Counted from the first letter of the stretch, positions 1 to 17,638 are shown. The stretch: DNA of 64,000 bases from Desulfurococcaceae archaeon (GCA_038824035.1 JAWBBW010000007.1:1-64000), one strand, 5' to 3'. Made by a program: numbers and translations. The notes: generated by a model not told the origin, from the sequence alone.

Positions 1-646
1 TGATGTACTTGGGGTTGAGCACGTTGTTCTTGGCAGCCCAGTTCGAGACCCACTTATCGGAAACGCTTAACCGCGGAGGCTTCTCAAGGGTATAGCAGTA
101 GAAGACCTGCTTACTACCACGCTTCCACGCCAGCGGGTACTTCCAGAACCCGTCTGCTTTTATCCACTTGCCGTCTTCTTGCTCCCTTAGCAGCTTGCAG
201 ACCTCTGAGAGCCTTAAACCACTATAAATCAGTAGCTTGTAAACCCAGCACAGGGCTTCACTACTTTTGCAGGCTTCCTCAACGGCTCTTCTGACCTCGT
301 CATCGCTTGGAACGTAGAGGTCTACCCCGCTCTTCTTGACCTTGATCTCCCTCCAGAGGTCTTCGCGTCCGAGGAACCTGTAGAACTGCTTCCAGGCAAG
401 CCTAGACCACTTGTTGTTCAAATCTAGTGGTTTAGAGAGATAAGAGGTGTACTGCCTGCACGTCTCTGGACTAGTCCCCTTCTCCATGCACCACTTGAGG
501 AAGTTTTGTATCATGATGTTATCCTGGACTCCGCTCTCATGCATGTAGTTAACTCCACGCGTGAACACTTGACTAGGCTTCAATTGAGAATCGGGCTTAG
601 AACCCGATGGCGTAGGCCTGCGTGGGTTCAAATCCCACCCCCCGCA
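1..646 (-). mobile_element. int: SSV-type tyrosine integrase, C-terminal fragment of a split int gene (runs off the left edge)
   Basis: Absent from the ORF track. Manual minus-strand translation is open from the att site: CGGWDLNPRRPTPSGSKP...VYKLLIYSGLRLSEV...WKRGSKQVFY...VLNPKYI, containing the catalytic R and K and the start of the KxxR motif. In-frame ATGs at 544 and 514. Visibly more GC-rich than the flanking host DNA. Confidence 0.9.
591..646 (+). repeat. att site: 3' half of tRNA-Leu(TAG)
   Basis: Sequence TCGGG-CTTAGAA-CCCGA (anticodon arm, TAG), variable arm TGGCGTAGGCCTG, T arm GTGGGTTCAAATCCCAC, acceptor 3' strand CCCCCGCA. No D arm or 5' acceptor strand upstream. Confidence 0.9.
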
Positions 647-816
647 TCCATATCCTTGGCTGACTCGTTTCTTGAATGAATTTTTAAATTATGAAATGAC
701 ATGTCCTGGTAAGCGATATATCTTAATTAGTGTTTGAAATACTTCTGTGTAAACTTGAATGATAAAAACAGTCATGTAAGTGAATTGGAAGAGGATCGCT
801 TGAGAAGGTGTTCTAA

Positions 817-1533
817 ATGATGAAGATCGAAATAGCGGACCTCAACGTACATAGAAACGGTTACAAGATACTTGATAATATCAATATCGTATTTGAAAGC
901 GGGGTTCATGTAATATTGGGGAGAAATGGTGCTGGCAAGACAACGTTTTTGAGAGCAATTGCTGGGTTAGTGCCTTTCCAAGGCGAGATCAAGATAAATG
1001 GAATGAGTATTAGGGGTTTAAAGAGAAAAGAATTATCAAGGCTTATTGGCTATGTATGGCAAAACCCATATTACGGTTTCATAGAATCCAGTGTTAGAGA
1101 TGAAATAGAAGTCATCCTCAGGAACCTTGGCTTGAATGGAGACATGTATATCGTTGAAAAATTGGTGCCACGCCACTTAATGAATCGCGATCCATCCTCA
1201 CTAAGCGGAGGCGAGGCACGCAGAGTATCCATAGCATCCATATTGGTGGCTGATCAACCGATATGGCTATTAGATGAGCCCCTGTCAAATCTAGACAAGA
1301 AAGGCGTAGAAGACCTAATCGACGTGATAAGATATGGGAGAAATCGAGGTAAAGTAATTTTAATAGCTTTACACGAGATCTATCACGCTTACATGATAGG
1401 GCCAGACACATATGTAGTACTAGATTCGGGGAAACTCGTGACGAGTGGCAAATGGGGTGAGATCGATGATCACGTGTTAACAAAGGTCGGTATTGTTTCG
1501 AGAACAGAACTGTGCTCCATTTGTCACATGTAA
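817..1533 (+). CDS. ECF transporter ATPase component
   Basis: Walker A GRNGAGKT, QNP loop, LSGGE signature, LLDEP Walker B; lies next to T and S components. Confidence 0.85.
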   Translation: MMKIEIADLNVHRNGYKILDNINIVFESGVHVILGRNGAGKTTFLRAIAGLVPFQGEIKINGMSIRGLKRKELSRLIGYVWQNPYYGFIESSVRDEIEVILRNLGLNGDMYIVEKLVPRHLMNRDPSSLSGGEARRVSIASILVADQPIWLLDEPLSNLDKKGVEDLIDVIRYGRNRGKVILIALHEIYHAYMIGPDTYVVLDSGKLVTSGKWGEIDDHVLTKVGIVSRTELCSICHM

Positions 1534-1538
1534 TGTAA

Positions 1539-2126
1539 GTGGTGTTTGTATTGATAATAGACGTTATCGAAGAAATCCTCGGATATAGGCTTATTGCACC
1601 GAACTGGGTTAAGTCAAAGCGTTTTATGGCAATCAAGATCGCCCTAATATTCATCTCAGCCATATTACCGTATTTAATTGACCCGCTTTATGTTACCCTA
1701 TGGCTTCTCTTCGTTATCTCATTTACATATATGTTAGGGCTTAGAAAAACTGTTATCTATGCCACTCTATCTGTTCTACTACTGTTCTCTATTTCTCTGT
1801 TACCAATAGCGCTGATTCTGGGTGGTGATGTTGAAAGGGTGATTAGATCGTCCATGACAGCCTATGCAACAATGTTATTGACAATATTCCTTATCGCATC
1901 CACACCACCGTCTACGTTTAAAGAACACTCACTGGTTTACTTGTTCTTGATCATCATTACAAGTGTATTCAGAGAAGTGGTAGACATCTCGGTAATCATG
2001 AAAAGCAAGGGGCTTTCAGGACTTAAGTACTATGCAAGTGTAATCACCACCTCATTCGTCATGACATTTGAAAGAATAGAACAATTGACTGATTCACTGA
2101 GGGTGCGCGGCATAGAGATCATTTAA
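1539..2126 (+). CDS. ECF transporter transmembrane T component
   Basis: Several TM segments and a C-terminal SLRVRG motif resembling the EcfT XRX motifs. Confidence 0.65.
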   Translation: MVFVLIIDVIEEILGYRLIAPNWVKSKRFMAIKIALIFISAILPYLIDPLYVTLWLLFVISFTYMLGLRKTVIYATLSVLLLFSISLLPIALILGGDVERVIRSSMTAYATMLLTIFLIASTPPSTFKEHSLVYLFLIIITSVFREVVDISVIMKSKGLSGLKYYASVITTSFVMTFERIEQLTDSLRVRGIEII

Positions 2127-2188
2127 GCGGCATGTAATTTAAAAGACCTCGGTCATTATTAAGAGTTTATCTGAAAAATGCGATCCAG

Positions 2189-2719
2189 GTGATACATATA
2201 ACGAACACTGAAAGTAACTATATACGCAAGGATCTTATCAGTGGAGTGGTGATCGCGGCTACATATGCTGCATTGGTCTGGGTCTTACAACCGATAAGTT
2301 TTGGGCCGATACAGGTTAGGGTAGCTGACATGCTATCACCATTGCCATATGTGATGGGTTTCGAAAGCGTGATCGGACTTACATTGGGCACTTTTATCGC
2401 AAATACGTTATCCCCCTATGGATTAATGGACATGGTAATAGGGACCTCTTGCACTTTCACATATGCATTGATCAACTATCTATTCGGCAAGTTAGTGGGC
2501 TATAGGAGGGCTGTTCTACCAATAATAGCGATCATGGACTCTGCCATAGTGGGCATTTTCATTGGAATCCTGCTGTTAAGTGTGGTTTTTGGAGAGGGAG
2601 ATCCATTATTCCTATTCACCATAGTATTCGTTGGGAACTTAGCCGCGACCATGCCAGGTGCACTGATCATAGTGCCGGTCATTAGGAAATTCTATGTCAA
2701 GTTCAAGGGCCTTACATAG
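2189..2719 (+). CDS. QueT-family ECF substrate-binding (S) component
   Basis: ISFGPIQVRVADML and GLTLGTFIAN-x-SPYG-x-DM-x-G motifs typical of QueT; hydrophobic throughout. Confidence 0.8.
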   Translation: MIHITNTESNYIRKDLISGVVIAATYAALVWVLQPISFGPIQVRVADMLSPLPYVMGFESVIGLTLGTFIANTLSPYGLMDMVIGTSCTFTYALINYLFGKLVGYRRAVLPIIAIMDSAIVGIFIGILLLSVVFGEGDPLFLFTIVFVGNLAATMPGALIIVPVIRKFYVKFKGLT

Positions 2720-3677
2720 ATAAAGATTCAACCGCTTTTTTGATATTACTGAGCTTCAAGATACTAATCTTGTAGGGATCCTTGCCAACGTTACTCGTGA
2801 TTGTTAGACCTCTAAAACCGCAATCTGCTGATACCAGGTCTATTCTCCAATCAACCAGGTTGCCTATTTCCAAGATCAATGATCTAATCTCGTCGATGGA
2901 TTCTACGCGGAGACTTTTACTACTAGCTACTCCTGGTGCCAATATCTTGTCGCCTGTCTCGAAAATATCTCTATTTATTATCGAGAGATTGTCCCTTGTA
3001 TCGTAGAACTCGAGGTTTATGAAATCCAGTTCCTCAGAAGATGAGATCACGGCGAGATATAGCCTAGAGACTCTACCACAAGTGTGAATACCATGTTCCC
3101 CGATCACTCCTTGAAACACCGTATCTATGGTATTCACTATATCCTCTTCTGTGTAGTTTAGCAATATTTTCCGAGCCCCTATAAGCACCGATAACAATGG
3201 CTCATCTATTACTAATATGTTATACCCTAGTCTAGTCATGTGTATAAGGGTGTTCCTAACATAGTTCACAACATGTTCAAATAATCTCTTGTTTGATAGA
3301 ATAGTAGATTTTAAATCTCCTATTGAAGGCTTCAAGTATATATTGCTCGATAAGGTGAAAGGCCCTGTTACCGGAGCTCTTAGATATTTGAAATTATTCC
3401 TAGCTAGCCCTGAAAACACCCTTGACTCATATATATCAGCCCACATATCGCTTAGTCTTTCCAATTCTGTTAAATCCTTGACAATGTAAAAACCATCTTT
3501 GTTTTCAATTATATTTTCCCTGATAAGTGGTTGTAGATACATATCTATAAAATTCCTTAACTGAGGATAAGGAGGCGCGTCAATACCTATTTCAATATAG
3601 TCCTTGACAATCCTCTCTACATTGTTAACCGAATAATCAAGTGGGAAACTACCAACATGGCTTGTTCTAATCTTCAC
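2712..3677 (-). CDS. Catalytic-domain-only (core) MetE-like methionine synthase, probable methylcobamide:homocysteine methyltransferase
   Basis: HVGSFP N-terminus, VTGPFTL, IDEP, and zinc ligands H-x-C (IHTCG), E (NLEFY) and C (ADCGF). Only 321 aa, with no folate-binding N-terminal barrel. Confidence 0.8.
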   Translation of the reverse strand: MKIRTSHVGSFPLDYSVNNVERIVKDYIEIGIDAPPYPQLRNFIDMYLQPLIRENIIENKDGFYIVKDLTELERLSDMWADIYESRVFSGLARNNFKYLRAPVTGPFTLSSNIYLKPSIGDLKSTILSNKRLFEHVVNYVRNTLIHMTRLGYNILVIDEPLLSVLIGARKILLNYTEEDIVNTIDTVFQGVIGEHGIHTCGRVSRLYLAVISSSEELDFINLEFYDTRDNLSIINRDIFETGDKILAPGVASSKSLRVESIDEIRSLILEIGNLVDWRIDLVSADCGFRGLTITSNVGKDPYKISILKLSNIKKAVESLSM

Positions 3678-3768
3678 GATATATCACCATTCCAAGTAAA
3701 TCACTGTGTTTTTATTTCTAAGGCAATAATTTTTAGTTAAGTTTCAACCCTTTCATAGTTTCATAGAG

Positions 3769-4443
3769 GTGGATAAAAATCCAATGAACGAGGATATTTT
3801 GAATGAAATAGAAAGATGCATGGTGAACTTGGATCGGGAATGTGTTATTGAAAAAATAAAAGAGGCTCTTTCACATGGTATTAAGGCATCCGAGGTAGTC
3901 ATGGGGCCTCTTTCTAAGGCAATGGAAGAAATTGGAAAACTATACGAGAACGGCGATTACTTTGTAGCAGAGTTATTGGAGGCCGCATCCATTTTCAAAA
4001 ACGTAATGGAATTTCTAAAGGACAAACTAGAGGCAGATGTATCGGTCAGTAAAAGTGGTAAAAGAGCTAAAATAGTCATAGGTACCGTGAAAGGGGATAT
4101 ACACGACATCGGTAAGACGCTTGTCTCCATAATGCTTCAAGCATCTGGTCACGAGGTGATAGATTTGGGCATAGATGTACCAGCTGAGAAGTTCATAGAT
4201 GCGTATTACAAGTATAAGCCCCAAATAATAGCCATGAGCGCGTTATTGACGACAACAGCGATGTATATGAAAACTGTCATAGATAAATTTGTCGAAGCAG
4301 GTTTAAGGAAAAAGGTAAAGATAATAATAGGAGGTGCTGCTACAAGCGAGGATTTCGCAAAAGAGATCGGGGCAGACGGTTGGGCTCCTAACGCTATCAA
4401 GGCCGTCGAGTTAGTAAACAAGCTCATAGAGGAATTAGAATAA
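3769..4443 (+). CDS. Stand-alone corrinoid (B12-binding) methyl-carrier protein, MtbC/MttC-like
   Basis: Four-helix cap plus GDIHDIGK (DxHxxG), SALLTTT and GGA cobalamin-binding motifs. Confidence 0.92.
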   Translation: MDKNPMNEDILNEIERCMVNLDRECVIEKIKEALSHGIKASEVVMGPLSKAMEEIGKLYENGDYFVAELLEAASIFKNVMEFLKDKLEADVSVSKSGKRAKIVIGTVKGDIHDIGKTLVSIMLQASGHEVIDLGIDVPAEKFIDAYYKYKPQIIAMSALLTTTAMYMKTVIDKFVEAGLRKKVKIIIGGAATSEDFAKEIGADGWAPNAIKAVELVNKLIEELE

Positions 4444-4453
4444 GTGTTCAAAA

Positions 4454-6043
4454 ATGTTCAACTTGATCGTGAGAACTGGTTCGAAGAAATACTTGCTTCG
4501 TATAAGAAACAGCGAATCCATTGGCGAAGTCCTCGGCAAAGAGGGGTTATTGGCACTACCTTGTGGTGGTAAGGGATTATGTGGCTTATGCAGGATCACC
4601 GTATTAAGAGGAGAAGTCTCGGAACTAAGTGGAAACGAACGAATTATTGGGGTAAAACCACCAGAAAGGCTCGCTTGCCGGGTAAAGCCGTTGGGAGATG
4701 TAGAAGTAGAAATACCCCCAATCATTATGCCAAAAGCTGTTTCACAGAGTAGTTTGAATATCTCTGTCAAACAATGGGACCCGCTGAACCTCAGATTACG
4801 GGATCTCTATGCAAGGTCTGTAGTAATAGATCACGGCATCTTAGCGGAGTTAATAAGTAAATACAGTGCAAATCATGGTTCCGATAAGGTCTTATTAATC
4901 GACCTTGGAACCACTAAGATAGCATACCAGGTCATGGACATCAAGTGGAATATACTGGAAGAGGATATTATTCCAACGCCTCTTCATGAATATGGATCCG
5001 ACATCATATCCAGGTTAACAAAGATCATTGAAAATCCGTATATTAAAATTGAAATGAGAAGGAGACTTATGGAGGTCTTAGAAAACCTGTCTGGTATCAG
5101 CAATTCAAAGCTTGCATTAATATGTGGAAACACGTTCATGGAGTACTTATTCCTAGATCTACCGTTGGAGAGTTTATCTCGTCATCCCTTTAAACCCCCT
5201 CTTAAAGGTCCATTTCTAACTCATGTAAGGGATATCATGGTAATAGCCCCTCCAATACTAAATGGCTTTGTAGGCGGAGATGCATATGCAGACCTGGTCG
5301 CAACTATCGAGATCGGCTTAAAACCACCATACTTGATAATTGATATTGGGACCAATACCGAGGTACTCCTAGTTACGGATACATACATATTGGTGACGAG
5401 TGCGCCAGCGGGTCCGGCGATAGAGGGCAAAGTGGGAAGAGCGTCATATATTGGTAGAGGCGGTGTTACAAAGGTCAGGATAATTAACACGATAAACGAG
5501 AAGCCCGTTTTCAGCCTCAATTATATCGAGAACCCACGGTATTTCCTAGGTAGCGGTCTACTTAGCTTAATCGCTGAATTAAAAAGACATGGCTTCATAC
5601 GTAGAGATGGTGTATTCCTAAAGGGGTATGAAGTGTTTAATGGTGTTAAGACATTTGTCGTGGATACGGAAAACGATCTCTATTTTACCCAAGTCGATAT
5701 GCGTAGACTACAAGAAGCATTAGCGGCCATAAAGGTAGCTTGGAAAATATTACTTGAAGAGGCGGGAATAAATAAGGACTTGTTAGAAAATGTAGTTGTA
5801 ACAGGAAATATGGCCATACACGTCGAGATCGATGATTTAGTTGAAACAGGGCTGATACCGTTCGTCGATAAAAGCCGCATTCTATTAGCAGGAAACCTCG
5901 TTTTATCGGGTCTCAGAGTGATGTTCTTGGACAACAAGTACATACTAAGATACGAAGACGTGATAGGTAGAGTTAAACATGTATATTTACCCATGGTTCC
6001 AAACTACATGAAGAAATGGGTTGAGAACCTGGCTTTGCCTTGA
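4454..6043 (+). CDS. ATP-dependent reductive activator of corrinoid proteins (RACo/DUF4445-type, 2Fe-2S plus ASKHA)
   Basis: N-terminal CGGKGLCGLC...RLAC ferredoxin motif; ASKHA motifs DLGTT, YGSDIISR, GFVGGDA, DIGTNTE, SAPAGPAIEG. Confidence 0.88.
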   Translation: MFNLIVRTGSKKYLLRIRNSESIGEVLGKEGLLALPCGGKGLCGLCRITVLRGEVSELSGNERIIGVKPPERLACRVKPLGDVEVEIPPIIMPKAVSQSSLNISVKQWDPLNLRLRDLYARSVVIDHGILAELISKYSANHGSDKVLLIDLGTTKIAYQVMDIKWNILEEDIIPTPLHEYGSDIISRLTKIIENPYIKIEMRRRLMEVLENLSGISNSKLALICGNTFMEYLFLDLPLESLSRHPFKPPLKGPFLTHVRDIMVIAPPILNGFVGGDAYADLVATIEIGLKPPYLIIDIGTNTEVLLVTDTYILVTSAPAGPAIEGKVGRASYIGRGGVTKVRIINTINEKPVFSLNYIENPRYFLGSGLLSLIAELKRHGFIRRDGVFLKGYEVFNGVKTFVVDTENDLYFTQVDMRRLQEALAAIKVAWKILLEEAGINKDLLENVVVTGNMAIHVEIDDLVETGLIPFVDKSRILLAGNLVLSGLRVMFLDNKYILRYEDVIGRVKHVYLPMVPNYMKKWVENLALP

Positions 6044-6051
6044 TTAATCCA

Positions 6052-6981
6052 TCATGGCTGGGTAAACAGTTTTTGAACTTTCCTCATCAACTTCCTCAGA
6101 GGATGACGTGGGGATGTGTTAGCCCCCTTTCTTCTTAATTCATATCCAATATAGCCATCTATCATTGCAACCACAGGCGCCACATATTTCACCCTGCTCA
6201 ACGGCCCTATCATTATATAGTCAGCCCCCTTTAACCTCAGATAAGCCGCAGTGCCTCCATGAATCCCATACATCTCGTCCAGTGTAACAGTTTTCTTCGA
6301 TATATTGCCAAGCGCGTTCGCGGGTGCACAACCAGCTATAAATCCATAATGTGCCTTAATTTCATGGATCATCTCAGCACATAGAACCACGCTACCTGGA
6401 TCTATCACGACGGCATCCACGAAGAATATGGAGACATCGGCCTGCATTGCCATTGGTAACAACTTCTCAGTTAGAATACGAATCCTGTTTTCTGGCTTAA
6501 TAGATTCGTATGGATTCTTGGGATCAAAGGCCACGAGAACTGCCTTGTTTAATTTGTTTTCGCGAATAGCGCTGATCTCCTCGAACGGGCTATCAACGTA
6601 AATGCCATTCGCAATTGAGAGATCCCTTAATCCAAGTTGTGACGCGACTACATAGCCCTTAATTCTAATTACCGGGTCAGGTGAATCTATGAAAATCGGG
6701 ATCTTGAAATCACCTATGAAACTGAGTATATCTTCTACCGCGTCTATACTGGGTAATACCACGTCTATACCTAGCACGAGGTCGTATTCACTGACCATTG
6801 AAACGGCCTCTTCGAGCATCAGCCTGAGCCCCTTTTTATCAAAATCACCTTTATTGCTCAAGAGCAGTTTATCCCCATGATAGAAAATCGTTGGAACAAG
6901 CCATGTAGGGGATTCACCCAATAAGCCACCTATTTCATATCCACCAATATTCCATTTATGAGGTTTAACAGAGCTAGCCAT
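6052..6981 (-). CDS. MtrH-like methyl-pterin:corrinoid methyltransferase
   Basis: IGG-x-GE-x-PT-x-TIFY-x-G N-terminus, PIFIDS, GCAPAN and GADY-x-GP motifs characteristic of the MtrH family. Confidence 0.82.
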   Translation of the reverse strand: MASSVKPHKWNIGGYEIGGLLGESPTWLVPTIFYHGDKLLLSNKGDFDKKGLRLMLEEAVSMVSEYDLVLGIDVVLPSIDAVEDILSFIGDFKIPIFIDSPDPVIRIKGYVVASQLGLRDLSIANGIYVDSPFEEISAIRENKLNKAVLVAFDPKNPYESIKPENRIRILTEKLLPMAMQADVSIFFVDAVVIDPGSVVLCAEMIHEIKAHYGFIAGCAPANALGNISKKTVTLDEMYGIHGGTAAYLRLKGADYIMIGPLSRVKYVAPVVAMIDGYIGYELRRKGANTSPRHPLRKLMRKVQKLFTQP

Positions 6982-7054
6982 GTATAAACACCATTTGCCT
7001 AGTTTAACCGTGATTTAAATAACTCCCTGGTTGCTAATAAACAGTGCATAGAAA

Positions 7055-7780
7055 ATGGGAAAGGTGTGTGTATTGGAATATATATTAGAACTACCACCTG
7101 TAAGCAGGAAATTCATCGACAAGATCGCGCCTTTGGCGAAAAACGTTTTCAACGCTGTATTCATACCCAGTGGGCCAGCTGGGATCCCGTTACTAGATGC
7201 GTGTGCTACGAGTATATATATTTCGACAGTCTATGGTTTAAAATCTATTTTCAGTATCAGGCTTAAGGATGTTAATTTAAACCATGTTATAGAGAAAGTT
7301 AAGACAGCTATGGAGTTCGGTATTAATGGAGTTCTTCTCACAAAAGGTGATCCACCGCGATATGGGTCCAGCTATGATGATCTTTCCAGCGAATATGTTC
7401 TCAAATATCTTAGAGAAATAAATGTTGACATGAAGCTGGGGCTAATAATTAGCCTTAGATATCCACTAGGCTCTATACTCAAAAGGATCTCCGAGAAACC
7501 AGATTTCGTATTCATAATTCACCATGTAGACAATGACCTTGACAAACTCATGGAGCTTAGAAAACATATAGCTGGCGAAATAAAGATCTATGATTTCATA
7601 TTATTGGGAGTAGATAAGAATATCGAGTTATTCAAGGAATTGGGGCAAAAATACGTTGAACCGATGAAATTGGGAGATCATATAGAAAAACTCAATAATA
7701 TTGTCGATGGAGTTATTATTTCATCTCCACTCGAAGTTAAAAAAGCAATTGAAATAGTCAGCAAACTTGTGGAGAAATAA
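7055..7780 (+). CDS. Methylenetetrahydrofolate reductase-like (MetF-like) flavoprotein
   Basis: ELPP near the N-terminus, IPSGPAG, R-x-KD-x-N and GINGVLLTKGDPP (the L-x-GD-P motif of MTHFR); short, 241 aa. Confidence 0.7.
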   Translation: MGKVCVLEYILELPPVSRKFIDKIAPLAKNVFNAVFIPSGPAGIPLLDACATSIYISTVYGLKSIFSIRLKDVNLNHVIEKVKTAMEFGINGVLLTKGDPPRYGSSYDDLSSEYVLKYLREINVDMKLGLIISLRYPLGSILKRISEKPDFVFIIHHVDNDLDKLMELRKHIAGEIKIYDFILLGVDKNIELFKELGQKYVEPMKLGDHIEKLNNIVDGVIISSPLEVKKAIEIVSKLVEK

Positions 7781-7787
7781 TCTCCTG

Positions 7788-8840
7788 TTATCTATCACCT
7801 ATATAGTGTCCCTTAATAGGTATTAGCTCACCACAGTATTTACACTTATACCTCTTATCTTCTGAATACTCTAGATTAAATTTCAAAACACGGTAATTAC
7901 TTCTATATATGATTATTCTTTTACAGTTTGGACATCGAGTAGACTCTAGCTCGGGGTCCCATATATTACCTACATATACAAATTTCAAACCCTCTTTGAC
8001 AGCGTAATTTCTTATCTTAATCAATTTGTCGACCGGCGTGGGCGGCTTATTCCACCTGTGAGCCGGATAATATCTGTTCACATGTAATGGTACATCTACC
8101 CCTAGATATTTCAAGTGATTATTTATAATCCATTCCACGCATTCATCGAAATCATTAGTATCTGTGACTACAAGGTAGATCATCTCGACATGAGCACCCA
8201 TATCCAATGCCATCTTCGCATTCCTGAAAACCACGTTATGGTCTATTGCTGGTAGAACGCTTTTCATACTTGGACAACCCTTTATATCAGCTGAAAAACC
8301 ATCAACACCGGATTCGATCAATGCCTTTAAGGAATTCTTCGTGAAATACATATTGGTCACGATCATGGAATATAATCCATGTTTAATGGCGATCTCTGTT
8401 ACATCTATAATGTATTCTGTCTGTGTCGCTGGTTCATTAAAGCTGGCGGATAACCCATCATCTCCGTTCATGACGGCCATTTTAACTAATTCGCTGGGCG
8501 GGATATAGGGTTCTGTGCTTTTCGGTCTATTGAAGCTAATACTATGATTTTGACACCAAGGACAGTAGAAGTTACACCCATAGTTACTATATGTAAGAGC
8601 CGTGCTATTGGGCCAATAGTGGAAAAGAGGCTTGATCTCAATTGGCCTGCTCTCAACACTGCTTAATCTACCATACCCAATGTTATAGACGATGTTATCC
8701 ATGTTGACATAGTTGCCACATATGCCAGGATGTCCCTTTCTCAACACACATCTTCTCTCACACACATCGCAAACAACCCCTTTTTCCGTGTTTTCCACAA
8801 AACGGGCTTTAACCAATGGGGGTTGATACAAAATCGACAC
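7788..8840 (-). CDS. AmmeMemoRadiSam-type radical SAM enzyme (PFL-activating enzyme-related)
   Basis: CDVCERRC N-terminal motif, PIEIKPLFHY, GCNFYCPWCQN, C-terminal CxxC...CxxC. Confidence 0.85.
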   Translation of the reverse strand: MSILYQPPLVKARFVENTEKGVVCDVCERRCVLRKGHPGICGNYVNMDNIVYNIGYGRLSSVESRPIEIKPLFHYWPNSTALTYSNYGCNFYCPWCQNHSISFNRPKSTEPYIPPSELVKMAVMNGDDGLSASFNEPATQTEYIIDVTEIAIKHGLYSMIVTNMYFTKNSLKALIESGVDGFSADIKGCPSMKSVLPAIDHNVVFRNAKMALDMGAHVEMIYLVVTDTNDFDECVEWIINNHLKYLGVDVPLHVNRYYPAHRWNKPPTPVDKLIKIRNYAVKEGLKFVYVGNIWDPELESTRCPNCKRIIIYRSNYRVLKFNLEYSEDKRYKCKYCGELIPIKGHYIGDR

Positions 8841-8853
8841 CTTGAATTACAAG

Positions 8854-8968
8854 CGCCGGGGGCGGGATTCGAACCCGCGCACCCCTTTCGGGGCAGTGGG
8901 TCTCTTGCCAAGTTCTACGCTGGAAATGGTCTCGAGCCCACCCCCTTAGGCCGCTCGGGCACCCCGGC
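8854..8968 (-). tRNA. tRNA-Ser(CGA) with 29-nt intron at 37/38 (intron 8902-8930)
   Basis: Cloverleaf GCCGGGG...GTGGG-CTCGAG^A-CCCAC, long variable arm, GGTTCGAATCC T arm, discriminator G; bulge-helix-bulge geometry around the intron. Confidence 0.93.
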
Positions 8969-9067
8969 ATCTAGGTGATATTTCTGATTTCTCCTTAATA
9001 GTTTTAAAATATGGTGAATTCGCCATTTAGATTTTCCATAATATAATATAAAAATAGCTTGCTGAAA

Positions 9068-9133
9068 AGCCCTCGAAGCCAGGGGACTCTTCATCTCTCC
9101 GAAGGTAGTCCCCCGACGGGACTTCATCGGGCT
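9068..9133 (-). ncRNA. Candidate box C/D guide sRNA
   Basis: GC-rich island with terminal stem AGCCC/GGGCT, C ATGAAGT, D' CGGA, C' ATGAAGA, D TCGA; AT-rich TATA-like element upstream and T-run downstream. Confidence 0.6.
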
Positions 9134-9186
9134 ATTACACTATGTATTCTTAGTCCTTAATTAATTTGAAGATCAAGAGGCATATA

Positions 9187-9903
9187 TTATGGCTTCACCG
9201 TGAAATACACTCTTTTCTTATTTTTACCTTTATTTTCCGCCTTTAGGAACACTATTTCACCGATTTCGCCTGTTTTCCTGACATGTGGACCTCCATCAGC
9301 TTGGATATCCACGTTAGGGATCTCAACTATTCTCAACACGTCTATCTCTGGTGGCATTCTGCTGGCCAGTTTCACTATGCCGGGTATTTTCAATGCATCT
9401 TCTCTGCTTAACCAATATATTTTCACCTCCAAATCTCTCTTCACTATCTCATTGGCCTTTTCAATGGCATTTATGAATATCTCCTTATCGAATTTCTCCA
9501 GGTTATAATCATCATATGCTTGATCTGGGCTTATATTTCCACCTGTTATCAGGGCTCCATAATTGCTATACATCACGCCGGACAGTATATGAGCTGCCGT
9601 ATGTAATCTCATTAATTTATATCGTCTCTCCCAGTCTAGGATAAGTTTAACCACAAGGTTCTCAGATAACCCATTCGTGCTTGAAACCCTATGTGCTACA
9701 TCACCTGTCTCCTTATCATAGAAGACCTCTGCCACCTCCACTGATTTTCCATTGAAAATTAAATATCCCTTATCATGATCTACTCCGCCACTTCTTGGGT
9801 GGAAAATGGTTTTATCCAGGAAGACCGTGTCGTTTTTCACATATCTAATACGGGCCTCTATTTCTCTCAAATAAGAATCTCTTTGATACACGAGCTCTGT
9901 CAT
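9187..9903 (-). CDS. alaX: Alanyl-tRNA editing protein AlaX-M
   Basis: TELVYQRDSY, HP-x-SGG-x-D, MRLHTAAH, QADGGPHV, and KGK-x-KR motifs. Confidence 0.93.
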   Translation of the reverse strand: MTELVYQRDSYLREIEARIRYVKNDTVFLDKTIFHPRSGGVDHDKGYLIFNGKSVEVAEVFYDKETGDVAHRVSSTNGLSENLVVKLILDWERRYKLMRLHTAAHILSGVMYSNYGALITGGNISPDQAYDDYNLEKFDKEIFINAIEKANEIVKRDLEVKIYWLSREDALKIPGIVKLASRMPPEIDVLRIVEIPNVDIQADGGPHVRKTGEIGEIVFLKAENKGKNKKRVYFTVKP

Positions 9904-9952
9904 TCAAGCCACCAGTTGATATTTCCCCAGAAACCATAATCCACCCTTGAGA

Positions 9953-10039
9953 TAGCCGGGCGGGGATTCGAACCCCGGTCACGGGGTTTCCCCCTTGTAG
10001 GCCAAAGCCCCGCATCCTTGGCCGCTAGACGACCCGGCT
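9953..10039 (-). tRNA. tRNA-Gln(TTG) with 14-nt intron at 37/38 (intron 9988-10001)
   Basis: AGCCGGG acceptor (A1-U72 typical of archaeal Gln), CGGGG-CTTTGG^A-CCCCG anticodon arm, GGTTCGAATCC T arm. Confidence 0.93.
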
Positions 10040-10144
10040 ATCAATAAGTATTAAAGATATACAGGGGTTTAAATTCTATTCCAAGTACAGGGTGATGATC
10101 AATTTGCTTTATAAGGCATTTTTCATGAAAGCTTTTTAAACGTT

Positions 10145-10160
10145 GCGAAAAATATATAAG
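10145..10160 (+). promoter_or_regulatory. BRE/TATA element upstream of tfb
   Basis: GCGAAAAATATATAAG: purine-rich BRE followed by a TATA box upstream of the TFB ORF. Confidence 0.5.
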
Positions 10161-10207
10161 GGGGTATACGAAAAAGTGTAAAGACTTATTTATTAGGGTG
10201 TTGTTCT

Positions 10208-11167
10208 GTGCTTATTCAAAACAACAACCCCGAGAATCCTTCCACGGAGATCTCTACAACATCCACAATTACGAAGAGATCTCAGTGTCCACAAGACAAG
10301 ATCGTGTTTGATACATCTAAGGCGGAATATATTTGCCTCGAAACAGGTGAAGTCATAGAGGACAAGGTAATCGATGATCGAGCCGAGTGGAGAGCATTCA
10401 CACCTGAGGAAAGGGAGAAAAGGGCGAGGACAGGTGGACCTGTCACAGCTACCGTTCACGACATGGGCTTTGCGACGACCATAGACTATGTGGATAGAGA
10501 TGCTGCTGGTAGAAAACTCGTGGGGAAGAAATATCAATTGACAAAGCTGAGGAAATGGCAAGCTAGGACAAGGATCTTGACAAGCGTGGAGAGGAATCTC
10601 GCGCAAGCTATGAATGAGCTTGACAGAATATCCGATTTGCTAAATTTGCCATCATATATCAGGGAAGAAGCGGCCAGAATATATCGAGAAGCCGTTGATA
10701 AAGGACTCGTAAGAGGTAGAAGTATTGAAAGCATCATAGCCGCCGCCATATACTTAGCGTGTAGAATTAGGAAAATACCGAGATCTCTAGACGAGATTGC
10801 CGATTGTACCAGAGTAGGTAGGAAAGAGGTCGCCAGGTGTTACAGGTTATTACTCAGAGAGCTTGGAATAAGAGTGACAACCGTGGATCCATCCGACTTT
10901 GTTCCGAGAATAGCCCATGCACTTGGATTATCTGGAAATGTCGTGAAAACAGCAATTGAGCTATTAAATAAGGCAAGGGAAACCGGTGTTACCGGAGGCA
11001 AAGACCCGGCCGGGCTTGCAGCGGCCGCTATTTACATAGCATGTGAAACACTTGGAGAAAAGAGAACTCAGAAAGAAATAGCAAGTGTCGTGGGCGTAAC
11101 TGAGGTTACCGTGAGAAACAGGTATAAGGAGTTAGCAAAAGTCCTAGGTATAGAAACCGAGGAGTAG
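10208..11167 (+). CDS. tfb: Transcription initiation factor IIB (TFB1-type)
   Basis: EWRAF...RTG, LRKWQ-x-R, ERNL and two cyclin repeats ([35 protein letters not shown]). Confidence 0.97.
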
Positions 11168-11224
11168 CTCTACCGATTCGTGTTAAAAGGACCATGAAAA
11201 ACGAGTTTTTTTAACTTTTTTCTT

Positions 11225-11536
11225 CTAGTCGGTTATTATTATGTTCTCCGGGTTTACCCCGATCTCCTCTATCAATATTTGCCTAACTCTCTGCCTATGA
11301 TCTCCCTGTAATTCTATTCTACCTTCATCCTCTCTATATGTGCCCCCAGTAGCTAGTTTTATCTTTAATATCTTAGCCAATTGCTTTAAGAGTTCTTTAT
11401 CATTAGGCAATCCATTTATCACTGTAACGGCTTTTCCGAATTTTCTGATATCAAGCCTTATCTTTATCAATGGTTGTTCCACTATTAGTTTTTCACATTG
11501 CTCCGGTGCAAGACCTCCACATTCAAGGCTTGCCAT
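11225..11536 (-). CDS. Translation initiation factor aIF1 (SUI1)
   Basis: RKFGKAVTVI...KLATGGT...IELQGDHR. Confidence 0.95.
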   Translation of the reverse strand: MASLECGGLAPEQCEKLIVEQPLIKIRLDIRKFGKAVTVINGLPNDKELLKQLAKILKIKLATGGTYREDEGRIELQGDHRQRVRQILIEEIGVNPENIIITD

Positions 11537-11642
11537 GATTTAATACATCACCATGTACTATAACCTGTACAAGTCTTATTTTAAGATTTAAGGTTTAAAA
11601 ACCTGTAATTAATAGAAACCGGTTTAGTGAAGTGTGATTAAT

Positions 11643-11792
11643 ATGGTCAAGTATAAATGTGGTAGATGTGGACACATATTTGATCATGAAGAGATGCTCA
11701 GGATTTTTGGTAGACAAGTTAAGTGCCCTAAATGTACTTATGAAATAGTGTATAAGACAGCCAAGGTATATAGAATAGTGAAAGCAATTTAA
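11643..11792 (+). CDS. rpoP: RNA polymerase subunit P (Rpo12)
   Basis: Absent from the ORF track. Manual translation MVKYKCGRCGHIF...VKCPKCTYEIVYK...IVKAI, a 49-aa zinc ribbon. Confidence 0.9.
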   Translation: MVKYKCGRCGHIFDHEEMLRIFGRQVKCPKCTYEIVYKTAKVYRIVKAI

Positions 11793-11799
11793 TCCAAGC

Positions 11800-12666
11800 C
11801 TATTCGTAAAAATATTTCAAGTAAAGCCCTGTTATTTCTAGAATCACCTTAGCCGCTAAAAGACTAGTTATATCGTTTACATCGACCAATGGGTTTACCT
11901 CGACCACGTCGATCGCTGTGATATCATCGCAGTTCTCGATCATCTTAGCCAATATATCTAAGAACTGCCATGGCCCTAGCCCGAATGGCTCCGGGTTAGA
12001 AACACCGGGTGCATAAGAGGGGTCGAACACATCCATATCTATGCTTAGGTATACTTTTCCAAGTTTACTCAAATTAATTCTACCACGCATAACATCGACC
12101 ACGTTGAATACATCAGCTCTATCCTTGGCAAACTCCAATTCCTCTTCACTATAAGCCCTAGACCCCAGATGTATGACTCTAAATCCTTCCTCGATCAATT
12201 TTCTGAGAAATGTCGCGTGGTTTACACGTGAATCCATGTATTCGCTTCTCATGTCGAGATGTGCGTCGAAGACTATAATCGTATCTACTTTATCGGAAAA
12301 TGCCTTGGTCAATGGATATGTAATTAAATGTTCTCCTCCTAAGAACACGTTGAGACCACGCAATACACTCTCCGAGATAGCCCTCGCTAAATAGTTTATT
12401 CTATGAAGCGATCCATCGATATCGCCAGGCGGCAACATGATATTACCAAGATCGTTGAATCCCGATCTCTCCAGGCTCAATCCAGTGGTTAGACTGAATA
12501 GCTCTAAATTACATGCTGCATCTCTTATACGATCCGGCGCAAAACGTGAACCAGGCCTATAAGTGCTCGTAACATCAAGTGGAACCCCAAGTACGTTCAC
12601 CGGCGATTTCTCATCGTGTAGACATGCGAATGGCGTTGTCTTTAACAATAAGTTTCGCCACGACAT
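11800..12666 (-). CDS. speB: Agmatinase
   Basis: RPGSRFAP, GGEHLIT, DAHLD, SIDMDVFDP-x-APG motifs. Confidence 0.93.
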   Translation of the reverse strand: MSWRNLLLKTTPFACLHDEKSPVNVLGVPLDVTSTYRPGSRFAPDRIRDAACNLELFSLTTGLSLERSGFNDLGNIMLPPGDIDGSLHRINYLARAISESVLRGLNVFLGGEHLITYPLTKAFSDKVDTIIVFDAHLDMRSEYMDSRVNHATFLRKLIEEGFRVIHLGSRAYSEEELEFAKDRADVFNVVDVMRGRINLSKLGKVYLSIDMDVFDPSYAPGVSNPEPFGLGPWQFLDILAKMIENCDDITAIDVVEVNPLVDVNDITSLLAAKVILEITGLYLKYFYE

Positions 12667-12681
12667 ATATAACTCCTTTTT

Positions 12682-12707
12682 AACGATTTTATTAAACGAT
12701 TTTATTA
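12682..12707. repeat. 13-bp tandem direct repeat in the speB/glyS divergent intergenic region
   Basis: AACGATTTTATTA occurs twice head to tail. Confidence 0.8.
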
Positions 12708-12756
12708 AATCCAGTTAAATCATTATTTAAAAATCACGGTACGAAGAGGTGTAGCA

Positions 12757-14490
12757 ATGACATCTAGGAATGATATATATGATAAGCTAATTGAGCTGGC
12801 TAAGAAAAGGGGCATATTTTGGAATTCTTTCGAGATATATGGCGGGGTTGCCGGGTTCTACGATCTAGGCCCTATAGGTGTCTTGATCAAGAGAAACATC
12901 ATAGATATGTGGTTGCGGAGCTTTGTTTATTCAAACGAATTAGTAGTCGAAATAGAGACGCCTATGATAAATCCAAGAATAGTTTTTGAAGCGAGTGGGC
13001 ATGAAGAACACTTCACAGATCCCGTGCTCGAGTGTTCAAAATGTGGCAGGATCTATAGGGCAGATCATCTGATCAAGGAGGTCGCGGGAATAAATGTGGA
13101 AGGCTTTGCAATAAATGAGTTAAAGGAAATCATCACTAAGAACAATATCAAATGCCCTGAATGCGGAGGCGAATTCAATGATCCATTCAGTGCTCTGTTG
13201 TTATTTAGAACTGAGATAGGCCCCTATAAAGGCGAAGTGGCCTATTTAAGACCTGAACACGCCCAAGGCATGTTCATTAATTTCGCAAATATATTAAGAA
13301 TAACGAGGAATAAATTGCCAATAGGCATAGCACAAGTAGGTAAAGTTGCCAGGAACGAGATCTCCCCGAGACAGGGATTACTCAGACTAAGGGAATTCAC
13401 CATAATGGAATTCGAGTTCTTCTTTGACCCAAGCGATAACAACACGATTTTTGATTACATAGATGATGTTAAAGATGAGAAACTTAGGATCATCACGGTA
13501 GAACTTAGAGAAAAAGGAATAGAAGAACCATTAGAGCTGACAGTACAAGAGCTTATAGATAAAAACATTGTAAAAACCCCATGGCTAGCTTATTGGATGG
13601 GGGTGGGCAATGTGTTCTTGAAGGGGCTTGGCATTCCTGATGAACGTATAAGGTTTGTGGAAAAACTACCACATGAGAGAGCGCATTATTCAGCCCAAAC
13701 ATTTGACCAAGAAGTATATACGCTCAAATATGGATGGATAGAGGTGGCTGGCTATGCATATAGGACTACATATGATTTAGAAAGACATATGAAACATAGC
13801 AACACCGATCTCACGTATTTCAGAAAATATGATGTCCCGGTAGAAAAAACAGTTGAAAGGGCTTATCCAAACCCAGCTATGATAAGAGAGATCTATCGTG
13901 AGAAATTCAATGCAGTGATGGACAAGCTAAGTAGGATCACACCTGAAGAGGTATATGAACAATTGATGAGAAAGGGCTATGTGGAAATAGAGGACATCGT
14001 GATACCGTCTAATTGCTTCTATGTCAAAAGCGAGAAAGTGAAAATATACGGAGAGAAGATAATTCCACATGTAGTTGAGCCTTCCTTTGGCCTTGAACGT
14101 CTTCTCTACGTTGTCATAGAGAATGCCTATACAGAAAGAGATGACAAAGTGGTATTAAAATTGCCCAAATCCATAGCACCTTATCATGTTGCGGTATTTC
14201 CACTTGTAACTGGAAATAAACCTGAGCATCGAAAAATGGTCCTAATCGCCAATGAGATTTACAAGGAACTAGTGTCCAAAGGCTTTAGAACTATATACGA
14301 TGAAAGCGGCAGTATTGGACGTAGATATGCGAGATCGGATGAAATAGGCATACCATATGCTATTACCGTTGATTACCAGACATTAGAGGATAACACCGTT
14401 ACCGTGAGAGATAGAGATACAACCCTTCAAGAGAGAATCAGTAGATTCGAGTTAATTAATTATCTAAGGGCAAAATTTAATTATATCTAA
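12757..14490 (+). CDS. glyS: Glycine--tRNA ligase (alpha2 type)
   Basis: YLRPE, RNEISPRQGLLRLREF, VEPSFG, SIGRRYAR-x-DEIG. Confidence 0.97.
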   Translation: MTSRNDIYDKLIELAKKRGIFWNSFEIYGGVAGFYDLGPIGVLIKRNIIDMWLRSFVYSNELVVEIETPMINPRIVFEASGHEEHFTDPVLECSKCGRIYRADHLIKEVAGINVEGFAINELKEIITKNNIKCPECGGEFNDPFSALLLFRTEIGPYKGEVAYLRPEHAQGMFINFANILRITRNKLPIGIAQVGKVARNEISPRQGLLRLREFTIMEFEFFFDPSDNNTIFDYIDDVKDEKLRIITVELREKGIEEPLELTVQELIDKNIVKTPWLAYWMGVGNVFLKGLGIPDERIRFVEKLPHERAHYSAQTFDQEVYTLKYGWIEVAGYAYRTTYDLERHMKHSNTDLTYFRKYDVPVEKTVERAYPNPAMIREIYREKFNAVMDKLSRITPEEVYEQLMRKGYVEIEDIVIPSNCFYVKSEKVKIYGEKIIPHVVEPSFGLERLLYVVIENAYTERDDKVVLKLPKSIAPYHVAVFPLVTGNKPEHRKMVLIANEIYKELVSKGFRTIYDESGSIGRRYARSDEIGIPYAITVDYQTLEDNTVTVRDRDTTLQERISRFELINYLRAKFNYI

Positions 14491-14902: not shown

Positions 14903-15292
14903 ATGGATCTTCAATCCTTATTACCGGAATTAAAGAACCTTGTAGATAGTTACGAAGAGCTTCTCGATAAAGGTAAAATAATTCTCTTATCTAGGGAATT
15001 CAGCATTATAGACCAGTTCATATCATTCTTGAGGGAAACTGTAATAAATACCTATAAATTATTGCCATTGGTTAAATCTAAGATACTCGAACAACAGGGC
15101 AGTACGGATAAGCTATACAAATACATATCAACATATTATAGAATGATAACATTAATTGACATACCTTACTTGATTTCAATACTTAAACAAATAGCTGATA
15201 AATTAGAGAAGGAAAATGAAAGAAGAGACTATGAGCAATTGGTTAGAATAATCGATGACATAGAAAAGTTCATGGACACTCTAAGATCCTAA
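14903..15292 (+). CDS. Hypothetical helical protein
   Basis: Operonic with the previous ORF; AGGAG Shine-Dalgarno. Confidence 0.65.
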   Translation: MDLQSLLPELKNLVDSYEELLDKGKIILLSREFSIIDQFISFLRETVINTYKLLPLVKSKILEQQGSTDKLYKYISTYYRMITLIDIPYLISILKQIADKLEKENERRDYEQLVRIIDDIEKFMDTLRS

Positions 15293-16862: not shown

Positions 16863-16969
16863 GAATAATCGCTCCCCGGCATAATCTACCTTACTTGTAG
16901 AATCCAACACTATTCTTAAATACCTCTTAAGACATATGCCTATGACAGAATTAAGAGCGAGGGATATCA

Positions 16970-17638
16970 ATGAGCGAGCAACCAGAGAGTACGTCACTCG
17001 TTGAACTAACTGTCACAGAGCACATGGTCAATATATGTAGAGTTATTAAAGACGAGTTAGTAAATTTGATCACATTACTCAGATTGCAGGGATCACAAGA
17101 CGATTATAAAAAACTATATGAAAAAATAAGGGAGATAAAGAATCGCGGGGAGGAAATGAAGATCTTGTTAATGGAGTACTTAGTTAAAAGTAGCGAGATA
17201 ATGATGTACTCGAGAAGTTACATAGAGATCGTGAGGTCGTTGGAAAGGATAATTCAACACATCGATGGCGTTGCATATAGATATCTCCTCATAGTTGAGA
17301 GTAGAATCATAATAGGGCAAGACACAATAGATAAGCTCCTAAACATGATAGATATGATTATGAAACAATTAGATGCAGTGGAGAGCTCCATTGATAAGAT
17401 CAGGATATCGCCTAGAAAAGCTTTGGAAACCCTCGATCATGTGATCAAAATCGAGGAAGATGTCGATAACATGTTCAGGAGGAATATATTTGAAATTTAC
17501 AGCAAGTACTCAGGCTATATAACGGCGTTAATGATATTAAAAGATCTCGTTGAATATATCGAAGAGATCAGCGATATAATGAGAATTGTTGGTGAAGAAC
17601 TACGATACCTAGCCCTGGTGAAAACAAGCTCACTTTAA
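16970..17638 (+). CDS. DUF47/PhoU-like phosphate transport regulator
   Basis: Helical repeat protein with IEEDVD and EEISD motifs. Confidence 0.7.
   Translation: MSEQPESTSLVELTVTEHMVNICRVIKDELVNLITLLRLQGSQDDYKKLYEKIREIKNRGEEMKILLMEYLVKSSEIMMYSRSYIEIVRSLERIIQHIDGVAYRYLLIVESRIIIGQDTIDKLLNMIDMIMKQLDAVESSIDKIRISPRKALETLDHVIKIEEDVDNMFRRNIFEIYSKYSGYITALMILKDLVEYIEEISDIMRIVGEELRYLALVKTSSL

Follow-up and report, generated by a model that had tools for sequence, protein, structure and literature searches.

Five adjacent genes of a Desulfurococcaceae archaeon probably encode a multi-protein, cobamide-dependent methionine synthase. They lie at positions 2712..7780 of the 64,000-nt stretch of DNA analyzed here (JAWBBW010000007.1:1-64000 of GCA_038824035.1; referred to as the window, in which all coordinates are counted unless a locus number is given). 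The window represents contig 7 of an archaeal genome of 1.33 Mb with a completeness of 99.67%, and the titled relatives of its genes come from Desulfurococcales, for example Thermogladius and Staphylothermus. A preliminary description of the window had assigned the five genes to a core MetE-like enzyme, a stand-alone corrinoid protein, a RACo-type activator, an MtrH-like methyltransferase and a MetF-like reductase; open reading frames (ORFs) were found at exactly these coordinates and their identities were confirmed. This reading is carried by the identities and folds of the gene products, by their catalytic residues, and by the linkage and phylogenetic spread of the genes. The route put forward in the preliminary description, from MetF through MtrH and the corrinoid protein to core MetE, is supported by comparative genomics, namely by the linkage of the genes, by the families absent from the genome and by the profile across the order.

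In the proposed scheme, methylene-pterin, which SHMT can supply, would be reduced to methyl-pterin by a short MTHFR-fold protein. The MtrH-family enzyme would then methylate the stand-alone corrinoid protein at Co(I), and the MetE-type zinc barrel would transfer the methyl group from methyl-Co(III) to homocysteine, yielding methionine. Co(II) formed by accident would be re-reduced by the RACo-type protein with the help of ATP and a 2Fe-2S domain, thereby restoring Co(I). Because homocysteine would arise at least from S-adenosylhomocysteine hydrolase, the system would close the S-adenosylmethionine (SAM) cycle. All substrates of the scheme are predicted, and so are the flux direction, the type of pterin used, the donors of electrons and the contacts between the proteins.

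Protein components of the cluster

The MetE-like protein matches the Pfam family Meth_synt_2 (PF01717) with 26.2 bits against a cut-off of 21. Its AlphaFold2 (AF2) model (pLDDT 93.5, pTM 0.92) finds as best Foldseek match in the PDB the entry 3rpd (E 2.4e-12), a single-barrel methionine synthase with bound selenomethionine, followed by the C-terminal barrels of MetE. To compare residues, we aligned 18 members of the family, picked among 120 listed of 169 matches. All 18 have H198, C200 and E223 at the zinc-ligand positions, and C286 is at least 90% conserved, with an aspartate in one member; these positions match the zinc ligands H641, C643, E665 and C726 of E. coli MetE. Thus, the core MetE-like enzyme with intact zinc ligands of the preliminary description was recovered. 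S10, Q39 and D158, also invariant among the 18 members, correspond to the homocysteine-binding residues S433, E484 and D599 of E. coli MetE, with a glutamine at the position of E484. The H-x-C, E and DCG elements of the family profile, as well as D158, align with MetE of T. maritima, and the equivalences of S10 and Q39 were derived from motif position and the residue list of Price 2021 rather than from the T. maritima alignment. No folate-binding N-domain is present in the 321-residue protein, and the corresponding family Meth_synt_1 (PF08267) has no match anywhere in its own genome.

The protein falls below the cut-offs of three archaeal NCBIfam models for methionine synthases: NF002119 (61.7 versus 258 bits), NF004712 (47-50.3 versus 387 bits) and NF003317 (38.1 versus 406 bits). 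Among 14 control genomes, NF004712 was passed only by Methanosarcina acetivorans. The catalytic subunit of a split MetE from the same genus, which reaches 241.7 bits with PF01717 and 485 with NF003317, shares 24% identity with the window protein over 222 residues. Membership in the MesA type and identity with the split-MetE catalytic subunit were rejected on the missed cut-offs of NF002119 and NF003317. Membership in the MesC type was rejected as well: NF004712 is not reached, C200 rather than a histidine occupies the C643 position, and the genome has no CdhD. The names given by NCBI to relatives of the protein are already 'methionine synthase'.

The same fold occurs in URO-D/MtaA-type corrinoid methyltransferases, which appear further down the Foldseek list (4ay7, E 3.8e-8), and some family members weakly match PF01208. 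Together with the distance of the protein from every curated methionine synthase model, this would suit a barrel that uses another thiol or methylated donor, the cluster then being an ordinary MT1-corrinoid-MT2-activase system for a different compound. We regard such an assignment as quite improbable, given that the best structural match is a methionine synthase holding selenomethionine, that the genome contains no other methionine synthase and that the family is anticorrelated with split MetE (see below). The conserved homocysteine and zinc sites, taken with this complementarity, argue that the MetE-like protein is most likely a methyl-corrinoid protein:homocysteine methyltransferase.

The second gene had been described as that of a stand-alone corrinoid protein, which is borne out by matches to both B12-binding domains (B12-binding, 93 bits; B12-binding_2, 63.5 bits) and by residues that are invariant in 24 relatives: D110, H112 and G115 of the DxHxxG motif, S157 and L159 of SxL, and the pair G188 and G189. 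The protein is of the His-on type. Its closest PDB relative is 1y80 (7e-51), followed by MttC, MtmC and the B12 domains of MetH, and the best NCBIfam model, that of the glycine-betaine corrinoid protein MtgC, gives 198 bits, under its cut-off. Co-folding of the MetE-like protein with the corrinoid protein yielded an ipSAE of 0.59, compared with 0.00 for the best of three controls; at least 87% of the contacts are common to the runs, and the partner has a pLDDT of at least 81. In calibration, 116 of 157 solved complexes and 2 of 215 mismatched pairs attained the mark, and an ipSAE of 0.60 or less was obtained for 18 of the 157 solved complexes and for both mismatched pairs that passed. The model thus lends weak support to a contact between the two proteins.

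The RACo-type activator of the preliminary description was likewise recognized, by Fer2 (25 bits), Raco_middle (59.3 bits) and RACo_C_ter (137 bits) domains and by a match to the RACo structure 3zyy (4.5e-31). As read from the sequence, its ferredoxin-like N-terminus holds the cysteines C37, C43, C46 and C75. The Pfam family RACo_linker, present in longer relatives, has no match in the window protein.

The fourth protein matches PF02007 with 106.9 bits, above the cut-off, and its top PDB relative is 6sj8, a methylcorrinoid:tetrahydrofolate methyltransferase (1.1e-32), which fits the earlier assignment as an MtrH-like methyltransferase. MtrH of methanogens is more distant (3e-23 for 8z9u, and 6e-19), and the protein stays under the cut-offs of the curated NCBIfam models (160.6 versus 287, 121.6 versus 550 and 89.6 versus 271 bits).

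The fifth protein, proposed earlier as a MetF-like reductase, is weak in sequence but clear by fold. The 241-residue ORF has no Pfam match above cut-off (PF02219, 13.1-13.6 bits versus 24), resembles in NCBIfam the MTHFR half of a bifunctional enzyme (E 2.3e-5), and in a sequence-profile search of the PDB with its family retrieved MTHFR at E 0.3-1 only; in the aligned profile stretch, the elements 'PH..D' and 'GD.P' pair with 'PHLT..D' and 'LRGD.P' of MTHFR. An AF2 model built with an alignment of 20 family members (pLDDT 92.7) clearly has an MTHFR-type fold: all Foldseek matches listed in the PDB (ranks 1-44) are MTHFR chains with TMq values of 0.63-0.75, and the best match reaches E 1.5e-10 at TMq 0.70-0.75. 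FAD-independent mycobacterial MTHFRs match the fold about as well as the FAD enzymes (8qpj, 7wmx). The role as a reductase is predicted.

Gene content, linkage and distribution

Family searches over the whole genome found a single Meth_synt_2 match, the MetE-like gene itself. As anticipated in the preliminary description, the searches detected neither the homocysteine domain of MetH (S-methyl_trans, PF02574), by which identity of the system with MetH was rejected, nor split MetE, the CFeSP subunit CdhD or MtrA. With neither the MetH domain nor Meth_synt_1 in the genome, the MetE-like gene is the only candidate methionine synthase. Loading of the corrinoid protein by an amine- or methoxy-type methyltransferase had been named as an alternative, and the families URO-D, MttB, MtaB and MtmB have no match in the genome. 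The MtrH-like gene is accordingly the only recognizable candidate for an enzyme able to load the corrinoid protein. The genome contains one Pterin_bind protein as well as SHMT and AdoHcyase. Besides the corrinoid protein, only two radical SAM proteins match B12-binding above cut-off (15270-16997(-) and 31988-33280(+)), and all five cluster genes are present in single copy (tblastn, E<=1e-3). The earlier view of the system as 'self-contained' does not fully hold. CobS has no match in the genome (it was found in 7 of 26 genomes searched), so that the cobamide would have to be imported and the organism probably depends on an outside supply.

To assess the conservation of the neighbourhood, which had been suggested as a check, we scanned one genome per species, which gave 96 relatives of the MetE-like protein, and kept 80 loci. 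The partners were found again with tblastn (E<=1e-5) in many of them, with counts of 42/80 for the corrinoid protein, 38/80 for RACo, 27/80 for MtrH and 21/80 for the MetF-like protein. The genes flanking the cluster recur hardly at all (a radical SAM gene in 1/80, QueT in 1/80 and a 195-residue ORF in 0/80). With recurrence at 21-42 loci for the partners against a single locus each for radical SAM and QueT, the adjacency is not due to chance. Under a stricter rule (E<=1e-8, at least half of the query covered, within 7 kb), all four partners were found in 10/80 loci and at least one in 49/80. That the five genes are merely adjacent and do not form one system is very hard to reconcile with linkage that recurs across many families, or with the confinement of RACo (45/45) and MtrH (40/40) to genomes that encode the MetE-like protein. 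The varying gene order and orientation among relatives would fit such a reading, as would the 31 loci in which no partner lies within 7 kb; some of these are on short contigs, and others are Bathyarchaeia and Ignisphaera loci with full flanks.

Pfam searches on 66 ORFs of 11 loci and on 28 ORFs of five further loci revealed four arrangements around the same MetE-like gene. Next to the window type there is an MttB type (10/80 loci), in which an uninterrupted MttB-superfamily gene of ~477 residues stands with the corrinoid protein and usually RACo, with no MtrH nearby. The MttB-like proteins score 310-423 bits, under the cut-off of the trimethylamine model (525 bits). Such a cluster would let an amine-type donor pass its methyl group directly to homocysteine in a corrinoid-dependent manner. 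The URO-D type (4/80 loci) combines a 430-residue URO-D-family protein, which carries no NCBIfam name, with the corrinoid protein and RACo, and a fourth arrangement (L025, L051) unites a canonical MtrH, a URO-D protein and the corrinoid protein. The MetE-like gene hence stays constant together with the corrinoid protein while the loading enzyme varies and, as one genus lacks MtrH altogether (0/5 genomes, with the MetE-like protein in 5/5 and RACo in 4/5), this places the MetE-like protein on the methyl-acceptor side.

A quick maximum-likelihood tree of the MetE-like protein (IQ-TREE, SH-aLRT support, 79 rows; the added loci L083, L085 and L086 were excluded, as were rows that cover less than 280 residues of the query) places the window protein in a clade of 13 rows, all from loci of the window type (support 91). 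A separate clade of 23 rows unites the MttB, URO-D and Ignisphaera types (support 98), the four URO-D-type loci forming one clade of their own (support 99), and the split-MetE subunit sits on a very long branch. The cluster labels require 17 changes on the tree compared with 36 when shuffled, and none of 200 shuffles was as low.

The distribution of the families was determined by six family searches in the same 151 genomes of the order, which were then cross-tabulated; since related genomes are not independent, the counts are to be read as a pattern and not as a statistical test. The MetE-like family is present in 48/151 genomes. RACo_C_ter (45/151) and MtrH (40/151) were detected only within these 48, RACo_C_ter being found in 0/103 of the others. 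CdhD (18/151) is also confined to the 48, mostly to one genus, and 30 of the 48 are without it. Meth_synt_1, the marker of split MetE, shows the complementary pattern: it was found in 92/151 genomes, that is, in 5 of the 48 genomes with the MetE-like protein versus 87 of the 103 others. Neither type of synthase was found in 16/151. The complementarity extends to single families, with the MetE-like protein versus Meth_synt_1 in 12/18 versus 1/18, 16/18 versus 3/18 and 8/8 versus 0/8 genomes, and in 0/18 versus 18/18 in each of two further families. Of the five genomes with both, two have single weak Meth_synt_1 matches, which may be the MetE-like gene itself. Twelve genomes, including that of the window, combine the MetE-like protein, RACo, MtrH and the MetF-like protein and have neither CdhD nor Meth_synt_1.

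The MetF-like family is more widespread (96/151 genomes). It was found in 93 of 129 genomes with a consumer of methyl-pterin (Meth_synt_1 or MtrH) versus 3 of 22 without one, and by coordinates it adjoins split MetE in several further genomes. Among the eight genomes with the MetE-like protein and no MtrH, a MetF-like match is present only in the one that also has split MetE. This distribution fits a lineage-wide methylene-pterin reductase serving whichever methionine synthase uses methyl-pterin and, together with the adjacency to split MetE, argues for the reductive direction.

Two observations on the related loci are added here. At L082:509-3751, in the genus of the window, two split-MetE genes directly adjoin a short MetF-like family member, which just passes the Pfam cut-off for MTHFR (24.5 bits). 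The same genome holds a cluster of MetE-like, corrinoid-protein and MttB genes (L083), so both kinds of synthase can coexist. In addition, a gene with an F420-0:gamma-glutamyl ligase domain adjoins MetE-like/MtrH clusters at L047:6923-7864, L025:3890-4798 and L051:5776-6687; a conceivable target of its product is the tail of a pterin or deazaflavin cofactor.

The locus and its surroundings

Feature coordinates in the window, and in related loci where a locus number is given
Feature	Position	Strand	Basis or remark
ECF-type ABC ATPase	817-1533		
195-aa ORF	1539-2126		no family match
QueT-family membrane protein	2189-2719		end overlaps end of MetE-like gene by 8 bp
MetE-type core catalytic barrel, 321 aa	2712-3677	-	PF01717, AF2/Foldseek, conserved residues; proposed methyl-corrinoid:homocysteine methyltransferase
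Divergent intergenic region, MetE-like/corrinoid-protein genes	3678-3768		91 bp, AT-rich, TATA-like runs
Stand-alone corrinoid protein, 224 aa	3769-4443	+	B12-binding and B12-binding_2; proposed methyl carrier
RACo/RamA-type reductive activase, 529 aa	4454-6043	+	N-terminal 2Fe-2S ferredoxin domain and ASKHA ATPase domain
MtrH-family enzyme, 309 aa	6052-6981	-	PF02007, PDB 6sj8; proposed pterin:corrinoid methyltransferase
Divergent intergenic region, MtrH-like/MetF-like genes	6982-7054		73 bp, AT-rich, contains 'atttaaataa'
Short MTHFR-fold protein, 241 aa	7055-7780	+	AF2 and Foldseek; proposed methylene-pterin reductase
MttB-type clusters, examples	L029:7971-13054, L036:6821-11789, L018:7998-11067, L047:7980-12729, L085:5010-9955		
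URO-D-type clusters, examples	L021:7986-12827, L033:8001-12942		

The genes for RACo and the MtrH-like protein are convergent, with 8 bp between their ends. Of the two divergent promoters proposed earlier, the two short, AT-rich divergent intergenic regions are present, and the promoters themselves are putative. A scan for sigma-70-type promoters, which does not apply to archaea, gave 15 sites versus 16.1 expected. Three metatranscriptomes from the same study contributed 0, 0 and 4 reads to window positions 1-13000, which are too few to judge expression. No riboswitch was detected in the window with Rfam at the gathering threshold, where two tRNAs were the only matches.

The flank at 817-2719 was considered as part of the cluster and dropped on the recurrence counts of QueT and the 195-residue ORF given above. 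The radical SAM gene at 7788-8840(-), 7 bp past the MetF-like gene, was dropped as well, its only recurrence being at L003; it is of the AmmeMemoRadiSam type (194.9 bits, cut-off 220). The two tRNA matches of Rfam are at 8854-8968(-) and 9951-10040(-). ARAGORN gives only the tRNA-Lys(ttt) at 9951-10040, and at 115 bases the match at 8854-8968(-) is rather long for a tRNA, so it may include an intron. Elsewhere in the window, a canonical TFIIB gene lies at 10208-11167 and a second, more divergent TFIIB paralogue, with one TFIIB repeat matched (77.9 bits), at 33930-34832(-). An ORF running off the window start (2-631(-)) matches an archaeal phage integrase family (Phage_integr_3, 75 bits).

Direction of flux and relation to known systems

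The direction of methyl transfer decides between methionine synthesis and a catabolic use of the same proteins. In the latter case flux would be mainly reversed or bidirectional: a methyl group from methionine or another thioether would pass through the corrinoid protein and MtrH to the pterin and be oxidized by the MetF-like protein into the one-carbon pool. Methionine is plentiful for a peptide fermenter, the closest solved relative of the MtrH-like protein (6sj8) runs from cobalt to pterin, and corrinoid-dependent methylthiol methyltransferases exist in methanogens. Furthermore, the passages of the Ruegeria study used here describe a bidirectional pterin methyltransferase working with a shared corrinoid protein (PNAS 2025). 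We consider this reversal unlikely, because a catabolic role does not predict the complementarity to split MetE (5/48 versus 87/103) and one-carbon units are already provided by SHMT. In addition, the pairing with donor-type MttB-like or URO-D-like proteins in genomes that lack MtrH requires the MetE-like protein to be an acceptor, and the MetF-like gene also adjoins split MetE, where flux must go toward methyl-pterin.

Several points nevertheless weigh against assigning methionine synthesis to the cluster. The MetE-like protein is highly divergent, with 26 bits on PF01717 and wide misses of all three archaeal 'methionine synthase' models, and the MetF-like protein is below the Pfam cut-off for MTHFR (13 versus 24 bits) and ~50 residues shorter than the matched bacterial MTHFR chains (roughly 275-304 residues). 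No partner was found within 7 kb in 31 of the 80 loci under the stricter rule. The MetF step is not universal, 12 of the 40 genomes with the MetE-like protein and MtrH having no MetF-like match, and the two kinds of synthase are not strictly exclusive, as 3/48 genomes clearly carry split MetE too (two adjacent matches each). Moreover, the profile overstates its significance because of the relatedness of the genomes. Finally, homology does not fix the direction, since methyl transfers among pterin, cobalt and thiol are reversible in related systems.

The proposed system is closest to the core MetE enzymes, MesA of methanogens and MesB of Dehalococcoides and others, which are methylcobalamin:homocysteine methyltransferases. 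Like the window enzyme, these are single zinc barrels without a folate domain, and MesA also has a glutamine at the E. coli E484 position. The passages of Price 2021 and Deobald 2020 drawn on here expect the methyl group to come from a corrinoid protein; Price 2021, in which MesA-D and split MetE are defined, predicts MtrA or CFeSP as donors, and Deobald 2020 cites an older suggestion that the methanogen enzyme is perhaps fed by a corrinoid protein or by MtrH. The window enzyme differs from core MetE in belonging to a separate, very divergent family that occurs in Thermoprotei and lies far under the NCBIfam cut-offs, and it is proposed to receive the methyl group from a small corrinoid protein of its own, encoded by the neighbouring gene, instead of from MtrA or CFeSP. 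The predicted MesC of Methanosarcinales and Archaeoglobi is likewise an archaeal core barrel with a glutamine at the E484 position. According to the parts of Price 2021 consulted, where Methanosarcina acetivorans is the MesC organism, a histidine replaces C643 in most MesC; the window enzyme has C200 at this place, and the pairing of MesC with CFeSP contrasts with the 30/48 genomes of this family that have no CdhD.

Split MetE of thermophilic and halophilic archaea shares with the window system the product, the catalytic fold and, in some genomes, the MetF-like neighbour, but it has a Meth_synt_1 partner and needs no cobamide. In Thermoprotei, split MetE is the only form of methionine synthase identified in the cited passages of Price 2021, and none of the terms Desulfurococc-, Staphylothermus, Thermogladius, Ignisphaera, RamA and MtrH occurs in the main text of that paper. 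The predicted archaeal forms named in the portion of GapMind 2026 at hand are split MetE and MesC only.

MetH, the split MetH with RamA-like reactivation and the MtgBCD system of Ruegeria all follow the same scheme as proposed here, from methyl-pterin to a cobamide on a B12-binding domain and on to homocysteine. As excerpted from Price 2018, Phaeobacter and Desulfovibrio possess a three-part split MetH with a RamA-like protein (ferredoxin plus DUF4445) for reactivation; this RamA/DUF4445-type reactivation replaces the SAM-dependent domain, as in the window. In Ruegeria, by the quoted passages of PNAS 2025, methionine synthesis and the demethylation of glycine betaine both draw on a single corrinoid protein and on a bidirectional pterin methyltransferase, and the variant clusters described above similarly have one corrinoid protein in common to different loading enzymes. 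The window system differs from MetH in its homocysteine module, which is of the MetE type and not S-methyl_trans, in its MtrH-type pterin module and in its anaerobic, hyperthermophilic archaeal host. The earlier statement that three of the four MetH modules are replaced by other families is somewhat overstated: the homocysteine module is indeed of the MetE type, but the corrinoid module belongs to the same family as that of MetH, and MtrH is reported in the passages seen of Deobald 2020 to be similar to the methyltetrahydrofolate domain of MetH.

The four-component MT1/corrinoid/MT2/activase systems (O-demethylases, MtgABC) comprise the same four kinds of protein, 6sj8 being an MT2 and 3zyy a RACo relative. 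In the window system, by contrast, the pterin enzyme is proposed to load the corrinoid, the thiol side is of the MetE type, and the process would be anabolic and not a catabolic demethylation. With the methanogen Mtr complex (MtrH/MtrA) the system shares an MtrH-family methyl transfer from methyl-pterin to a corrinoid; it has no MtrA, and its corrinoid carrier is of the MetH/MtaC type.

In the literature covered, by title, abstract or passages, we found no description that combines a MetE-type enzyme with a corrinoid protein dedicated to it and with MtrH, RACo and MetF. The novelty asserted in the preliminary description thus stands for this arrangement, which seems undescribed, and not for ATP-driven, RamA-type reactivation or split modular synthases, which are known in bacteria from the sections of Price 2018 and PNAS 2025 cited above. 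The concept is an extension of the known core-MetE and split-MetH/RamA systems. What appears to be undescribed is this family of MetE-type barrels, its combination with a dedicated corrinoid protein, a loader of the MtrH type and RACo in archaea that have neither the Wood-Ljungdahl pathway nor methanogenesis, and the interchangeable loaders.

A broader interpretation, to which we give slightly less than an even chance, is that the MetE-like family might be a fifth and so far unrecognized core methionine synthase family, acting as a universal methyl acceptor on its dedicated corrinoid protein with interchangeable loaders. Together with the MtrH-type enzyme, RACo and the short MTHFR, it might fully replace MetH or split MetE, be the only methionine synthase of many Desulfurococcales and tie the regeneration of methionine and SAM in these hyperthermophiles to a cobamide whose synthesis they are unable to complete. 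In relatives that lack MtrH, the MetF-like protein and split MetE, the methyl group of methionine might be taken directly from whatever substrate an MttB-like or URO-D-like enzyme uses. If this is true, the MttB and URO-D variants would be a corrinoid-dependent counterpart of betaine-homocysteine methyltransferase.

For the organism, methionine synthesis by the five-gene system would mean that the cluster may be the only route to methionine in this lineage. If so, it would fill a gap in the reconstruction of amino-acid pathways, 43 of the 48 genomes with the MetE-like protein being without the marker of split MetE. It would also give a concrete role to the orphan MtrH genes of non-methanogenic archaea, the role of MtrH in non-methanogens being called unclear in the part of the Berghuis 2018 preprint consulted, and it would name the physiological corrinoid partner of a core MetE, which for MesA, MesB and MesC is only predicted. 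Collectively, the proposal predicts cobamide-dependent recycling of methionine and SAM in hot-spring and vent heterotrophs without CobS, in which the MetH reaction scheme would have been assembled again from a MetE-type thiol module.

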